Below, one piece after another: positions 8,587 to 44,679 of a stretch of DNA of 64,000 nt (the stretch's first letter is position 1; every line of letters begins with the position of its first letter). The DNA comes from Oscillospiraceae bacterium (lineage in GTDB: Bacteria; Bacillota; Clostridia; Oscillospirales; CAG-272): the NCBI GenBank assembly GCA_015064695.1, contig SVRS01000004.1, positions 32,557-96,556 of the forward strand, in the 5' to 3' direction. The translations under genes and the position numbers were made by a program. The notes under the pieces were generated by a model. It did not search any database and was not told where the DNA came from. It saw only the letters and a list, made by a program, of their open reading frames with translations.

Positions 8587-8672
8587 GGGGAGCGGGAGAA
8601 CGCAAGGAACCTTCTTAAAAGAAGGTTCCTTGACCTCCAAGAACTTTTCGAAAAAGGATTCCTCAAAGAGAT
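8587..8672 (+). repeat. Hairpin-plus-tail intergenic repeat R1
   Basis: GGGGAGCGGGAGAACG + perfect hairpin CAAGGAACCTTC-TTAAAA-GAAGGTTCCTTG (8603..8632) + tail ACCTCCAAGAACTTTTCGAAAAAGG. Confidence 0.6.
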
Positions 8673-10071: not shown

Positions 10072-10145
10072 TTGCTAAAGTTTTTGGGAATCCAAAACCC
10101 TTTTTTCAAAAAGGGTTTTGGCCGCCGGAGGCTCGCTCCCCCCGC
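10072..10145 (-). repeat. Hairpin-plus-tail intergenic repeat R2 (inverted)
   Basis: The reverse complement reads GGGGGAGCGAGCCTCCGGCGGC + CCAAAACCCTTTTT-GA-AAAAAGGGTTTTGG + ATTCCCAAAAACTTT. It lies between the ygiQ promoter and the start codon. Confidence 0.6.
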
Positions 10146-10171
10146 AAATTTTCCCCGAAAGGACACGCCTT

Positions 10172-13394: not shown

Positions 13395-13448
13395 TACGAA
13401 GGACCATTTTACATCTTATACTAATCCTTGACAAAAACATTGAATAGA

Positions 13449-13520
13449 AGAGCGTGCCTCCGGCGGCTTAAACCCTTCTTTGAAGAAGGGTTTAAGAATC
13501 CCAAGAACTTCAAAAAAGAA
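13449..13520 (+). repeat. Hairpin-plus-tail intergenic repeat R3
   Basis: AGAGCGTGCCTCCGGCGG + CTTAAACCCTTC-TTTGAA-GAAGGGTTTAAG (13467..13496) + AATCCCAAGAACTTCAAAAAAG. Confidence 0.6.
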
Positions 13521-13617
13521 TTATAGAGGATACAAGAGGAAAACAGATACCATAGAGGGCATCACCATGGGGCCCCTCCCCCATTGGTTCGGGAGAACGG
13601 TTTGACATTCAAGGTTT

Positions 13618-14364
13618 TTATTGATAATTAGTATTAGGGGAAGATTCGCACGACTCCTTGTCCACGATCTCGCTTCCCTTCCCACTCTTGAAGATGGCAT
13701 AGGCGGGCACTGCGCCCCGGACGGAGGACAGAGGATAGATATTCGTGTGCGCACCGATCACCGTACCGGGATTCAGGACGCTGTTGCAACCCACCTCCGC
13801 AAAGTCTCCCAGCATGGCTCCCAGCTTTTTCCGCCCCGTGGAGATGGGATCAAAATCGCCCTTAAATCCCCTTGCAGGCTTGACCGTGACGGGGGATCTA
13901 TCGCTTTTGACGTTGGAGGTGATGGCCCCCGCTCCCATATGGGATTTATAGCCCAGCACCGAATCTCCCACGTAGTTATAGTGGGGCACCTGTACTCCAT
14001 CAAAGAGGATGCAATTTTTCAGCTCGGTAGAATTGCCCACCACGCAATCTTCCCCCACCAATACCGCACCGCGGATGAAGGCCCCATGACGCACCTCGGT
14101 ATGCTCCCCGATGATAGCGGGTGCATTGATACAGGCCGTAGGTGCGACGGTAGCGGAGCGGGCGATCCAGATTCCGTCGGCGGGGTGGTCGTACAGCATG
14201 GGATCCAACGTGTCCCCGATCTCTCGGATGATCACGGGAATCTCCGAGAGAATCTCCCAGGGGAATTCGGTATGCTCCAGCCAGGGCTTGGCACGGGTGT
14301 GGGTCAGATCGAACAAGGCTTGCGTGCGGAGGGGGATGCGGGGTGCTTCATCATTCTTTTTCAT
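13618..14364 (-). CDS. Left-handed beta-helix (hexapeptide-repeat) protein, GlmU C-terminal-like
   Basis: Repeated [LIV]G hexapeptide pattern (IIGEHTEVRHGAFIRGAVLVGEDCVVGNSTELKNCILFDGVQVPHYNYVGDSVLG...). The ATG at 14362-14364 lies 1 nt after the glmM TGA stop, suggesting translational coupling. Confidence 0.65.
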   Translation of the reverse strand: MKKNDEAPRIPLRTQALFDLTHTRAKPWLEHTEFPWEILSEIPVIIREIGDTLDPMLYDHPADGIWIARSATVAPTACINAPAIIGEHTEVRHGAFIRGAVLVGEDCVVGNSTELKNCILFDGVQVPHYNYVGDSVLGYKSHMGAGAITSNVKSDRSPVTVKPARGFKGDFDPISTGRKKLGAMLGDFAEVGCNSVLNPGTVIGAHTNIYPLSSVRGAVPAYAIFKSGKGSEIVDKESCESSPNTNYQ

Positions 14365-15879: not shown

Positions 15880-15940
15880 ACCTTTTGAAAGTTCTTGAAA
15901 GTAATCCGGGGAAAACCTCCTTCAAGAAGCTTTCCCCGGA
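15880..15940 (-). repeat. Hairpin-plus-tail intergenic repeat R6 (inverted, imperfect)
   Basis: The reverse complement reads CCGGGGAAAGCTTC-TTGAAG-GAGGTTTTCCCCGG + ATTACTTTCAAGAACTTTCAAAAGG. It lies between the glcK stop and the glmM promoter. Confidence 0.45.
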
Positions 15941-19393: not shown

Positions 19394-21361
19394 ATGAACA
19401 AAGGCTCTGACACCTACACCAACGAACAACTCAAAATCCTCCGCCTGCTGGCCGCCGAATACCCCTCCATCGCCCTGGCAGGGGCAACCTTGGTGAATCT
19501 CAACGCTCTCTCCAATCTGCCCAAGGGCACCGAGCATTTCATGAGCGACCTCCACGGCGAGGCCGAGGCCTTTGAGCATATCCTCAACAACGGCTCCGGG
19601 GTCATCCGCGAGAAGGTAGACACGGTTTTCTACCGTACCATGGGCGAGGAGGAGCGGCGCACCCTCTGTACCCTCATCTACTACCCCGTCGAGAAGATGG
19701 AGGAGCTGCGGGCGGGCGGTGTGATCACCTCCGATTGGTACCGCATCACCTTGTACCGTCTGGTGGACCTTTCCCGCTCGGTGGCCTCCAAATACACCCG
19801 CGAGAAGGTGCGGGAGGCTCTCCCCGCCGATTACCGCTACATCATCGACGAGCTGCTCCACACCTCAGGGGAGGAGCACGACAAGCAGGAATACTACCGC
19901 AACATCATCGACACGGTGATCGAGGTCGGCCAGGCAGAGGCCTTCATCGTGGCTCTCTGCAACCTCATCAAGCGCATGGCGGTGGACCGTCTTCACGTGG
20001 TGGGGGACATTTACGACCGAGGCAATCATGCCGACCGCATTCTGGATATGCTCCGCGAGCATCATCAGGTGGACATTCAGTGGGGCAACCACGACATTGT
20101 CTGGATGGGTGCCGCCGCGGGGTCTGCGGCTTGCGTGGCCACGGTGCTTAACTCGGCGTTGCAGTACAATACCCTATCCATCGTGGAGAACACCTACGGC
20201 ATCTCCCTGCGGGACCTCATCGGCTTTGCCCAGGAGACCTACCGCGACTCCACCTGGTTCATGCCCCGCAACCCCGACGACGCCTACTACGTCAAAAGCA
20301 GCATGGACAATCTGGCCAAGGCCCACAAGGCCATCGCCATCATTCTGTTCAAGCTGGAGGGCCAGCTCATCCGCCGTCATCCCGAGTTCGGCATGGAGGG
20401 GCGGTTGGTGCTGGAGGCTATTGACTACGAGGCCAACACCGTGACCCTGGGCGGGGTGGCCTACCCCCTCAACGACGGGCACTTCCCCACCATTGATCCT
20501 GCGGATCCTTACCGACTGACCGATGCCGAGTCCTCACTGATCGGGTCGCTGACGAATGCCTTCCGCCACAGCAGAGCCCTCCGCCGTCATGTGGAATTCC
20601 TTTACAATGACGGTTCTCTTTACAAGGTCTGCAACGGCAATCTCCTGTTCCACGGCTGTATTCCCATGACCGCCGCAGGAGAATTTGACAGCGTCGTCTG
20701 CATGGACGGTGTGGCCCGCAGCGGCCGCGCCTACATGGATTGGTGCGACAAAACTGCCCGCGCGGCCTTCTATGAGCACAGTCAGGATGCGCTGGATTTC
20801 ATGTACTATCTCTGGTGCGGCCGCCGCTCTCCTCTGTTCGGGCGGGAGCGGATGACCACCTTTGAGCGGTATTTCGTGGCCGACAAGGGGACCTGGACCG
20901 AGCAAAAGAATCCCTACTACGGGTTGGTGGAGGACTATGAGGCCGCCGCGGCCATCCTCCGTGAGTTTGGACTGGACGAGTCCACGGGGCACATCATCAA
21001 CGGCCACGTACCCGTCCGCGCCGCCATCGGGGAGCATCCCGTGAAGGCTCGGGGCCGCTACATCCGCATCGACGGCGGATTCTGCCGCGCCTATCACAAC
21101 CACACGGGCATTGCGGGATACACCCTTATCTACTCCTCCCGCGGTCTGCGCCTGGTCTCCCATAGCCCCTTTGAGGGCAAGGAGGCGGCTGTCCGTCAGA
21201 ACCGCGACATTCTCGCCGCTGACGACGTCGTCTTTGAGATGATGCCCCGCCGCATGCTGGTCCGCGACACCGACCAAGGCAAACGCATCATCGAGCGTAT
21301 GGAGGACCTCCGCGCCCTGCTCGCGGCATACAGGGAGGGTGTGGTATCGCCCGAGGTGTGA
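19394..21361 (+). CDS. fbp: Fructose-1,6-bisphosphatase class 3
   Basis: 655 aa with LRLLAAEYPSI...LPKGTEHFMSDLHGE...HVVGDIYDRG...WGNHD, the Firmicutes Fbp class 3 signature. Confidence 0.9.
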   Translation: MNKGSDTYTNEQLKILRLLAAEYPSIALAGATLVNLNALSNLPKGTEHFMSDLHGEAEAFEHILNNGSGVIREKVDTVFYRTMGEEERRTLCTLIYYPVEKMEELRAGGVITSDWYRITLYRLVDLSRSVASKYTREKVREALPADYRYIIDELLHTSGEEHDKQEYYRNIIDTVIEVGQAEAFIVALCNLIKRMAVDRLHVVGDIYDRGNHADRILDMLREHHQVDIQWGNHDIVWMGAAAGSAACVATVLNSALQYNTLSIVENTYGISLRDLIGFAQETYRDSTWFMPRNPDDAYYVKSSMDNLAKAHKAIAIILFKLEGQLIRRHPEFGMEGRLVLEAIDYEANTVTLGGVAYPLNDGHFPTIDPADPYRLTDAESSLIGSLTNAFRHSRALRRHVEFLYNDGSLYKVCNGNLLFHGCIPMTAAGEFDSVVCMDGVARSGRAYMDWCDKTARAAFYEHSQDALDFMYYLWCGRRSPLFGRERMTTFERYFVADKGTWTEQKNPYYGLVEDYEAAAAILREFGLDESTGHIINGHVPVRAAIGEHPVKARGRYIRIDGGFCRAYHNHTGIAGYTLIYSSRGLRLVSHSPFEGKEAAVRQNRDILAADDVVFEMMPRRMLVRDTDQGKRIIERMEDLRALLAAYREGVVSPEV

Positions 21362-21447
21362 GGGGGGGAGAACGAGGGGCTCTGCCCCCGGCCCCCGCTT
21401 AAGGGGCTTTTGAAAAAGCCCCTTAAGAATCCCAAAAACCTTCAAAT
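21362..21447 (+). repeat. Hairpin-plus-tail intergenic repeat R4
   Basis: GGGGGGGAGAACGAGGGGCTCTGCCCCCGGCCCCCG + CTTAAGGGGCTTT-TGAA-AAAGCCCCTTAAG (21398..21427) + AATCCCAAAAACCTTCAAATGG. It starts immediately after the fbp stop. Confidence 0.6.
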
Positions 21448-21547: not shown

Positions 21548-21584
21548 GAAAAACCACTCGATTTTTGAAACCGAGTGGTTTTTG
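21548..21584. terminator. Bidirectional intrinsic terminator after GH43a
   Basis: AAAAACCACTCG-ATTTTTGAAAC-CGAGTGGTTTTT. Confidence 0.7.
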
Positions 21585-34329: not shown

Positions 34330-36153
34330 TTATTGGTCGTCGCTATCCAGGCGCAGGACCGCCATAAAGGCCTCGGGAGATACCTCCACCGAGCCCAACT
34401 GGCGCATCTTCTTCTTACCTTCCTTCTGCTTCTCCAAAAGCTTCTTTTTACGGGTGATGTCACCGCCGTAGCACTTGGCCAGCACGTCCTTACGCATGGC
34501 CTTGACCGTCTCGCGGGCGATGATCTTGGAGCCGATGGCGGCCTGGATGGGGATCTCAAAAAGCTGACGCGGGATATTCTCCTTCAGCTTCTCGGCCACG
34601 CGGCGGGCGCGAGAGTAGGCCTTCTCCTCGTGAACGATGAATGACAGGGCATCCACCTGCTCGGCATTGAGCAGGAAGTCCAGCTTCACCAGCTTGGAGG
34701 GCTCGTAGTCCAGCAGCTCGTAGTCCAGGGAAGCGTAGCCGCGGGAGCGGGATTTAAGAGCATCGAAGAAATCGTAGATGATTTCGTTGAGAGGCAGGTG
34801 ATAGTGAAGCTCCACGCGGGTCTGATCCAGGTACTTCATGTCAATGAAGGTGCCGCGGCGATCCTGACAAAGGTCCATCAGACCGCCCACGAACTCGGTG
34901 GGGGTGATGATGTTGGCCTTGACGATGGGCTCGCGAGCCTCCTTAATCAGATCGCTGGTGGGGTAGTTGGAGGGGTTGTCCACAATGATCTCCTGACCGT
35001 CGGAGAGGGTGACCTCATAGACCACGCTGGGGGCGGTGGTGATGAGGTCGAGATTGAACTCTCGCTCCAATCGCTCCTCGATGATCTCCATGTGGAGAAG
35101 GCCCAGGAATCCGCAACGGAAGCCAAAGCCCAGGGCGATGGAGGTCTCGGGCTCAAAGGAGAGGGCCGCGTCGTTGAGACGGAGCTTCTCCAAAGCATCC
35201 CGCAGATCACCGTAGCGAGCGCCGTCGGCAGGGTAGATACCCGCGTAGACCATGGGATGTGCCTCGTGGAAGCCGGGGCAGGGCTCCTTCGTGGGATTCT
35301 CGTGGAGAGTGACGGTATCGCCCACCTGGGTCTCGCTGACCGACTTGATGGAGGCGGTCAGATATCCGACCTCACCGGCCTGCAAAATCCCCGTGGATTT
35401 CAGGCCGAAGGGCTCAAGAGTACCCACGTCCACCACGTCGAAGGTGGCACCGGTGCTCATGAGACGGATCTTGTCGCCGGTCTTGAGACAACCGTCAAAC
35501 ACCCGGATATTGACCACAACGCCCAGGTAGCTGTCATAGTAGGAATCGAAAATCAAGGCCTTGAGGGGCGCGTTCTCATCCCCCGTGGGGGCGGGAATGT
35601 CGCGGACCACGGCCTCCATGACGTCTGCAATATTCAAGCCGGTCTTTGCCGACACGGCAGGGCATCCCTCGGCGGGGATGCCGATGATCTCCTCGACGTC
35701 CTCGCGGCAACGATCCACCTGGGCGGAGGGGAGGTCGATCTTATTGATGACGGGGACGATCTCCAGGCCTGCGTCCACCGCCAGGTAGGCGTTGGCCAAG
35801 GTCTGAGCCTCGATGCCCTGGGTGGCGTCCACCACCAAAAGCGCACCGTCGCAGGCGTTGAGGGAGCGGGAGACCTCGTAGTTAAAGTCCACGTGCCCGG
35901 GGGTGTCAATGAGGTTGAACACGTATTCCTCTCCGTCGGGGGCAGCGTAGTTGAGCTTGACGGCGCGGGCCTTGATGGTTATGCCCCGCTCCTTCTCCAG
36001 GTCCATGTTATCCAGCACCCGATTCTCCATCTCTCGGGCCGAGAGGGTCTGGGTCAACTCCAGTATGCGATCGGCCAGGGTGGACTTACCGTGGTCGATG
36101 TGGGCAATAATGGAGAAATTCCGAATGTGCTTCATGCGTTCACTTTGTGCCAT
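34330..36153 (-). CDS. lepA: Translation elongation factor 4
   Basis: [20 protein letters not shown]...DTPGHVDF...NKIDL... plus the LepA C-terminal domain. 607 aa. Confidence 0.95.
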
Positions 36154-36167
36154 AGGGTTCCTTTCGT

Positions 36168-36260
36168 GGGAGGTGCGGAGAGCGAGGGGCTCTGCCCCTG
36201 TCCCTCGCTTAAGGAACCTTTTGCAAAAGGTTCCTTAAGAATCCTCTAAAACTTTCAAAT
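36168..36260 (+). repeat. Hairpin-plus-tail intergenic repeat R5
   Basis: GGGAGGTGCGGAGAGCGAGGGGCTCTGCCCCTGTCCCTCG + CTTAAGGAACCTTTT-G-CAAAAGGTTCCTTAAG (36208..36238) + AATCCTCTAAAACTTTCAAAT. The 5' part is nearly identical to R4. Confidence 0.6.
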
Positions 36261-44543: not shown

Positions 44544-44679
44544 CAAAGCAGACCTCCGCGCCCCCCATTGCAATCGGTCCGGCTACTGCTGAGGACCTTG
44601 GGGAAACAAGGGGAGTGTGCCTCCGGCGTCCGACAGGCAAGCCTCTCAGAACGTTAACATACCTATAAATCATATAAGA

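Follow-up and report, generated by a model that had tools for sequence, protein, structure and literature searches.

Given that a hairpin-bearing sequence (R4) directly follows the stop codon of a fructose-1,6-bisphosphatase (FBPase) gene in a 64,000-nucleotide stretch of DNA (the window), we questioned whether R4 and similar sites nearby are copies of one repeat, and which relation between their parts is kept as their sequences change. The window belongs to a 2.53 Mb assembly of 81 contigs (55% GC). An earlier note on this DNA had described six intergenic sites of a single architecture (R1 to R6), and all six were recovered in place (Table 1). Scored with a covariance model trained on 60 copies from the same genome, R1 to R5 clearly belong to a single repeat family, and for these five the proposed common architecture stands; R6, which had been singled out as imperfect, does have an imperfect stem, matches the model marginally and is a decayed copy. 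A weak match at 44604-44669 (plus strand; 16 bits, E 0.05) is possibly another decayed copy. The genes neighbouring the repeats are housekeeping genes (class I lysS, radical SAM, holA, class 3 FBPase, GH43, lepA, pgm and a ROK kinase), and a reading of the sites as integron attC was rejected on account of such neighbours (lysS, holA, fbp and lepA).

Table 1. Copies of the repeat in the window, the parts of R4, and matches to the covariance model.
Feature	Position	Strand	Details
FBPase stop codon (TGA)	21359-21361	+	class 3 fructose-1,6-bisphosphatase gene 19394-21361, Pfam PF06874; R4 begins at the next base
R4 head	21362-21374	+	GGGGGGGAGAACG; G-rich, Shine-Dalgarno-like
R4 module A	21375-21397	+	small hairpin GGGGC-TCT-GCCCC, linker CGG, C-run CCCCC(G); from folding and comparison of copies
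R4 hairpin B	21398-21427	+	CTTAAGGGGCTTTT-GA-AAAAGCCCCTTAAG; perfect 14 bp stem
R4 tail	21428-21447	+	AA, pyrimidine block TCCC, purine run AAAAA, then CCTTCAAAT; candidate third strand of hairpin B
R4 model match	21369-21447	+	89 bits
R1	8587-8657	+	first base directly after the TAA stop of the class I lysyl-tRNA synthetase gene; head and hairpin B (8603-8632), without module A; tail ACCTCCAAGAAC
R1 model match	8589-8652	+	40 bits
R2	10072-10147	-	GCCTCCGGCGG-box head, hairpin 10092-10121; upstream of a radical SAM gene
R2 model match	10072-10147	-	74 bits
R3	13441-13516	+	box-type head, hairpin 13467-13496; within a 224-bp composite (13413-13636) with terminal inverted repeats, downstream of the holA terminator
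R3 model match	13441-13516	+	73 bits
R5	36179-36259	+	modules A and B, hairpin 36209-36238; antisense to lepA, in the lepA 5' UTR, head end 1 base from the lepA ribosome-binding site
R5 model match	36179-36259	+	72 bits
R6	15883-15927	-	decayed copy; between the ROK kinase and phosphoglucomutase (pgm) genes
R6 model match	15883-15927	-	12 bits, E 0.47

The repeat to which R4 and its relatives belong is a non-coding mosaic of 85-95 nt. Across the family, the head consists of zero to three tandem units of a Shine-Dalgarno-like octamer, G[GA][GA]GA[GA]CG. Module A takes one of two forms: in some copies it is a small GC hairpin (for example CAAGGGGC-TCT-GCCCCTTG) with ACCCC behind it, in others a GCCTCCGGCGG box. 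In hairpin B the stem measures 14-16 bp, an arm patterned YYWAR-variable-C-TTYTT leading through a GA loop into its complement, and the tail follows in the general order AA, pyrimidine block, purine run and CTTTCAAAAA. Hairpin B is cleanly missing from two copies (G000:C12:6609-6669 and G000:C29:34383-34443), in which the head box is joined directly to the tail (GGCGGCTTAG followed by AACTCC), and its loss there looks like clean excision of a palindrome by slippage.

The six sites of the window are a small sample of the copies, of which the genome holds about 170. An nhmmer search (E<0.01) returned 168 non-overlapping copies, 125 of them full length, and the genome contains 349 perfect hairpins whose stem reaches 11 bp or more, where about 5 were expected in random sequence of equal size, a strong enrichment. 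Based on rough self-trained ORF calls (coding fraction 83%), 156 of the 168 copies (93%) are intergenic. The copies cover approximately 0.5% of the genome and 13 of them lie at contig ends. Two to five copies share a locus in 26 of 131 cases, and neighbouring copies are arranged tail-to-tail (17) or in tandem (20) but not head-to-head (0). Head-to-tail arrays of 3-4 copies with a period of ~110-165 bp were seen at G000:C17:33513-33934, C69:15221-15591 and C29:29328-29897, and in tail-to-tail dimers (e.g. C39:16011-16169) both tails make a further long imperfect palindrome.

Using the covariance model, we detected the repeat in 57 of the 121 genomes sampled from the same bacterial family (47 of 97 genera), often with at least 39 scored matches per genome, compared with 1 of 140 genomes elsewhere in the class; nearly all genomes of the same genus carry copies. 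The repeat is common across one family of gut Clostridia and nearly restricted to that family. Rfam contained no matching family (the window gave a T-box and tRNA only, and the best match over R4 had E 0.19), and a literature search returned no description of the repeat, in agreement with the earlier note, which had recognised no described family. The repeat family is real and large, and it is apparently undescribed. Phage and plasmid collections yielded no match to it. Five predicted viral contigs in IMG/VR (L314-L318) fit the pattern of module A plus hairpin; four scored 24-29 bits with the model, L317 gave no match, and the aligned copies were without the tail block, so these contigs hold weak distant relatives or fragments. 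A search for the 14-mer head box across genome contigs gave chance matches only, in GC-rich genomes, and no true copy.

We assessed how the two arms of the stem vary together. That pairing is conserved while sequence is not, as had been suggested from the sites in the window, was borne out in 60 copies selected for well-formed stems, in which 98.9% of cells were paired and 14 of the 15 pairs had changed on both sides. The stem covariation score was 0.674, a value reached in none of 500 shuffles, compared with 0.224 for shuffled stems, and it collapsed when the 3' partner was shifted by one column. Among 124 distinct full-length matches taken without such selection, 90 had a perfect stem of at least 12 bp, and 91 of these 124 copies were less than 95% identical to any other copy. 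The covariation is strictly of the Watson-Crick kind: G-U occupied 4 of 856 cells in the 60 copies, and the stem mismatches (35 in 2,546 pairs) included 10 G.T and 17 A.C and were symmetric between strands. Because G-U is rare and the mismatches are symmetric, we infer that a DNA palindrome is kept on both strands rather than an RNA helix. As single strands, the copies fold with energies of -14 to -24 kcal/mol and z-scores of -2.2 to -4.4 (Watson-Crick-only folding).

The tail behaves differently from what had been proposed. Rather than simply being conserved, it varies with the stem as a parallel mirror-image code, and the exact 18-mer tail occurs once in the window, even with up to 3 mismatches, the tails differing by indels. 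Mutual information in an HMM alignment linked columns of the tail with columns of the stem in mirrored order, and the code was then tested on 215 copies (87 unique ones from this genome, ~90 from 14 genomes of other genera and ~40 from gut metagenome contigs). In this code A is answered by T, G by C and an apical T-A pair by A. The tail's pyrimidine block follows the purines of the 5' arm in parallel, with T for A and C for G. Blocks hold more T where the 5' arm holds more A (Spearman 0.68, or 0.65 when 121 distinct combinations are counted), and the parallel code beats the antiparallel one in 137 copies versus 5, or 48 versus 2 when distinct stem types are counted. The alignment score of the parallel code was 3.62 versus 1.42 ± 0.15 with tails swapped among copies, and between stems that differ at one position the A variant had more tail T in 43 pairs and fewer in 4, although the copies are related by descent and these shuffle and sign tests overstate their independence. 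Series of variants display the read-out (AAAAAC/TTTC, AAAACC/TTCC, AAACCC/TCCC; and AAGAAAC/TCTTC, AAGGAAC/TCCTC, AGGAAAC/CCTTC), and a copy in another genus has the 5' arm GGGGGAAAAACTTTTT and the tail CCCCCTTTTCAAAAA.

The purine run of the tail is the apical run of the 3' arm read backwards. The length of the tail A-run equals that of the stem T-run in 108 of 125 copies, and where runs are asymmetric the tail was an exact mirror in 12 cases and a direct repeat in 0 (stem/tail AGAAA/AAAGA, AAGAAA/AAAGAA and GAAAAA/AAAAAG, for example); 66 of 89 copies share a constant register. These asymmetric runs and the parallel order ruled out two other readings of the tail, one in which it pairs alternatively with the 5' arm by Watson-Crick rules and one in which it repeats the 3' arm directly. 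Head-tail Watson-Crick pairing (GGAG with CTCC), which folds had suggested, showed no covariation (3.64 versus 3.58). The same logic recurs in module A. Over 132 copies, its G-run and C-run were 3/3 long in 14, 4/4 in 59 and 5/5 in 6, and all five stems of the form GGG(G)AC were followed by CCC(C)T (GGGGAC by CCCCTG, for example); the C-run segment is a mirror of the 3' arm and neither its Watson-Crick partner nor a direct repeat of it. We regard the code that links tail to stem as very probably real.

Could such correlations arise in an ordinary selfish palindrome of the REP or MITE kind, in which template switching keeps the stems and the tail follows by descent, aided by low-complexity A/T and C runs, or serves as a protein site? 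The family has the subfamily structure that this would bring, with clusters of 10, 6 and 5 near-identical copies. One subfamily, that of R3 (10 near-identical copies), is represented inside the 224-bp composite, which is non-coding, has imperfect inverted repeats of ~28 bp at its termini (CTAATACTAATCCTTGACAAAAACATTGAAT with its counterpart) and recurs as a 99% identical copy on another contig (G000:C16:6029-6252); at least this subfamily has moved recently as a passenger. The clean losses of hairpin B would also suit a selfish palindrome, and so would the statistics of longest exact substrings, which gave similar scores for mirror and direct repeats and did not separate them. Descent alone, however, does not predict the direction in which tails change with one-step stem variants (43 versus 4), the parallel order in 48 of 50 informative stem types, the mirror rather than direct arrangement in 12 of 12 exact asymmetric cases, or the same logic in a second, unrelated hairpin. 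A tail kept as a protein site fares no better, since proteins read inverted or direct repeats and not mirror repeats. We therefore consider an ordinary selfish repeat of this sort unlikely. On contigs C65 and C77 the inner part of the composite is also repeated in tandem, every 179 bp.

Mirror repeats are neither maintained by Watson-Crick pairing nor produced by template switching, and to our knowledge the triple helix is the structure that demands them. Judging from the pattern of variation, we lean, by a modest margin, towards a mirror code that reflects a physical triplex. Each module would comprise a hairpin followed by a third-strand segment that reads it, and the fold would be an intrastrand, partly alternate-strand triple helix of the BoxC/PIT/TMECO kind, forming most likely in transiently single-stranded DNA. 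Alternate-strand triple helices were reportedly described by de Bizemont et al. in 1996 with synthetic (T,G)- or (T,C)-containing oligonucleotides, and one base pair is skipped in them at a 5'-purine/pyrimidine-3' junction. In the same way, the third strand of hairpin B would switch from the purines of the 5' arm, read in parallel (T.A-T, C+.G-C), to those of the 3' arm, read antiparallel (A.A-T, G.G-C), with one pair skipped; the known examples were designed and intermolecular, whereas this one would be natural and intramolecular. Such triads are standard, the third strand running parallel to the purine strand in T.A-T and C+.G-C and antiparallel in A.A-T and G.G-C (PMC2532714, PMC4666352). 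We place the putative triplex in DNA because the stems avoid G-U and because the clearest covariation (A.A-T and G.G-C at the apex) belongs to the purine motif, and this motif reportedly does not arise in RNA (PMC4666352).

When minus-strand rules were applied, 79% of triads were allowed, compared with 68% for swapped tails, and the fit peaked at the true register. Counted from the apex, the commonest run of allowed triads was 6 (range 0-12). Several points nevertheless speak against a triplex. The putative triple helix is short and interrupted, and it needs a strand switch with one skipped pair. The tail places a C opposite mid-stem C-G pairs, a combination outside the canonical triads on the plus strand that can be accommodated only on the minus strand, as a parallel G.G-C triad. 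For module A to fold on the plus strand, four neighbouring cytosines would have to be protonated. A fold in DNA alone also leaves unexplained the adjacency to stop codons and a 2:1 sense bias, both of which point to transcription or translation.

The head of the repeat abuts stop codons. It lies within 10 nt of a same-strand stop in 43 of 80 cases, against 0 of 57 for the tail, and among single copies it does so within 12 nt in 35 of 70, compared with 2% under random placement; the gene calls are crude and make start-codon distances unreliable, but these stop-codon distances are independent of the choice of start. The same bias holds in other genera (heads 44 of 81, tails 11 of 81). From the stop to the first hairpin the distance is 0 to ~25 nt, varying with the number of head octamers. 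In tandem regions, 66 copies are sense and 36 antisense, consistent with the earlier observation of both orientations relative to flanking genes; 33 copies lie between convergent genes, and divergent regions are avoided (8 copies versus ~26 expected, given how many of the intergenic regions of 60 bp or more are divergent). Among genes that a head adjoins, TAA is favoured (28 TAA, 15 TGA and 2 TAG, versus 844, 866 and 71 in the genome).

Antisense copies occur in 5' regions as well. R2 is one such copy, in the 5' region of the radical SAM gene, and R5 fills the lepA 5' UTR in antisense, ending one base before the ribosome-binding site GAAAGGAA (ATG at 36153). Upstream of lepA on the minus strand is a promoter-like site (TTGCCG at 36330-36325, a spacer of 17 nt, and TATAAT at 36307-36302), and the CCUCC-rich complement of the R5 head lies directly upstream of the lepA Shine-Dalgarno sequence. 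Near R4, a canonical bidirectional terminator (AAAAACCACTCGATTTTTGAAACCGAGTGGTTTTT, 21549-21583) is found between the FBPase and GH43 genes, ~100 nt past the R4 tail, with the head-like GGGGAGCGGGGGA just upstream of it.

With half of single copies placed within 12 nt of a stop, in the sense orientation only, the repeat may instead be a module that the host keeps at the level of RNA, in 3' UTRs, where hairpins after the stop would protect the 3' end or tune termination, perhaps with major-groove triples of the U.A-U and C+.G-C types. R4 lies between the FBPase stop and the terminator, and is thus transcribed as 3' UTR; the plus-strand pyrimidine block of the tail and module A fit the pyrimidine motif, which RNA can form; and the REPs of E. 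coli are a precedent. Against an RNA module stand the near-absence of G-U from the stems and the lack of strand bias in their mismatches, the roughly one third of copies that are antisense to a neighbour or in 5' UTRs (R5 and R2, for instance), and the apical covariation (A.A-U, G.G-C in RNA), which is the best supported and falls in the purine motif, reported absent in RNA (PMC4666352). Nor is the occupancy of orthologous sites conserved between species. After the orthologous FBPase gene of sister species we found a terminator, nothing before the next gene, or a different, unrelated copy, so occupancy turns over. On balance, an RNA-level module kept by the host appears improbable.

The possibility that the repeat is an unusual family of intrinsic terminators is very remote, despite a stable hairpin at gene ends and the copies between convergent genes: neither hairpin is followed by a U-tract in either orientation, as the earlier note had also seen, of 52 stop-adjacent copies only 5 contain a terminator-like signal, separate canonical terminators are present near R3 and near R4, and the repeat does not replace ordinary terminators, which are equally frequent with and without it (70% versus 65% in convergent regions, 18% versus 18% in tandem regions).

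Taken as a whole, R4-type repeats may be a non-coding mosaic with REP/BIME-like siting, a two-module, triplex-type single-strand fold, propagation that depends on this fold, and a REP-like effect on the host, a combined reading that we hold to be about evenly balanced between right and wrong. Some machinery would propagate, or retain, only those copies that keep the fold; from species to species the occupied sites change, while copies that have diverged are still perfect internally. For the host, the effect would resemble that of REPs, a stable structure in the 3' UTR, 0-25 nt past the stop, blocking 3' exonucleases and hindering the terminating ribosome. A stronger version, to which we incline somewhat less, is that natural selection maintains a double intramolecular triple helix, one module of it alternate-strand, and that the fold after stop codons has a function of its own, either as the substrate of an unknown mobilisation of single-stranded DNA or as a roadblock coupling translation termination to the fate of mRNA or DNA. 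Most likely, the family is a structure-dependent DNA repeat that acts, as a by-product or by co-option, as a REP-like 3' UTR structure near stops; in any particular function we have much less confidence.

The earlier comparison with REP/BIME elements holds in part. Like those of E. coli and Pseudomonas, the repeats are short extragenic palindromes present in hundreds of copies, at gene 3' ends and in both orientations, some of them in mosaic clusters (here 168 copies, of which 156 are intergenic, each built on a 30-nt hairpin core). Copies within a BIME alternate in orientation, whereas neighbours here are tail-to-tail in 17 cases and in tandem in 20. In E. coli, roughly one REP in two is found no more than 15 nt from a stop and stalls the terminating ribosome there, according to the account of Liang et al. 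2015 in PMC12306157, and the stop-adjacent half of the single copies here matches that account. The hosts differ, however, REPs being known from Proteobacteria and this repeat from a family of Clostridia. There is also no conserved GTAG-type head, 14 of 15 stem pairs vary on both sides while pairing stays perfect, and each of two hairpin modules has its mirror third segment. The RAYT- or IS200-like tnpA gene that the earlier note had raised was not found either: PF01797 (Y1/RAYT) was absent from this genome (84% complete) and from three nearly complete relatives with high copy numbers, G062 (98%), G095 (96%) and G058 (93%), and it was present in G110 and G049. The repeat is thus REP/BIME-like in its genomic behaviour and falls outside the REP-RAYT systems.

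Neither a mobilising enzyme nor a target duplication nor an empty site was found, and an empty-site search through exact matches to the FBPase and LepA proteins returned contigs identical to the window, with no polymorphism. Modular non-coding repeats that belong to one clade and are gained or lost between close relatives include the pneumococcal BOX, RUP and SPRITE elements and MITEs. The present family is likewise modular, clade-restricted and turning over (BOX and SPRITE being compared here from general knowledge), and it resembles MITEs in that one subfamily lies inside an element with terminal inverted repeats. Unlike MITEs, the core family has a head and a tail that are not inverted repeats of one another, no target duplication was found, and only the 224-bp composite has terminal inverted repeats.

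The closest structural parallel is with the BoxC/PIT/TMECO repeats (PMC4666352; Hoyne et al. 2000), which also have three consecutive blocks on one strand, a hairpin and a mirror third block (class II Y-R-R, class III R-Y-Y), and many dispersed intergenic copies; a promoter or terminator role has been found for neither group. In the repeat described here, too, the third block is by sequence a triad-compatible mirror. TMECO has one fixed, G/C-rich sequence with nine uninterrupted triads of the G.G-C type, and its triplex has been shown in vitro (Holder et al. 2015, PMC4666352); the BoxC-type consensus is CCCTCNCCC...GGGNGAGGG...GGGNGAGGG (PMC4666352). The present repeat, known from sequence alone, is unrelated to it in sequence, mixes A/T and G/C in its blocks, would need a strand switch, has 6 as its commonest triad run, combines two modules in one element and is associated with stop codons. 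Its sequence also varies, and evolution itself thereby displays the triad code. By its internal logic, the repeat would be a sequence-variable, two-module variant of the intrastrand-triplex repeats BoxC, PIT and TMECO.

For these genomes, the family marks a gap in annotation, as an unannotated repeat that accounts for ~0.5% of their sequence and for much contig fragmentation (13 copies at contig ends). Whether triplexes are selected in bacteria is an old open question, for which BoxC and TMECO offer the physics without an evolutionary signal, because their sequence is fixed. Here the sequence varies freely while the relation of hairpin to third strand is kept, so the covariation test familiar from RNA can be applied to a triple helix, and dozens of natural variants are on offer for melting and footprinting. 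If the triplex reading is true, the triad code appears as three-way covariation in hundreds of diverged copies from dozens of genera, and this would be the first triplex in bacterial genomes to be backed by evolutionary covariation. The tie to stop codons, for its part, makes a REP-like role in translation termination or mRNA decay directly testable in gut Clostridia.
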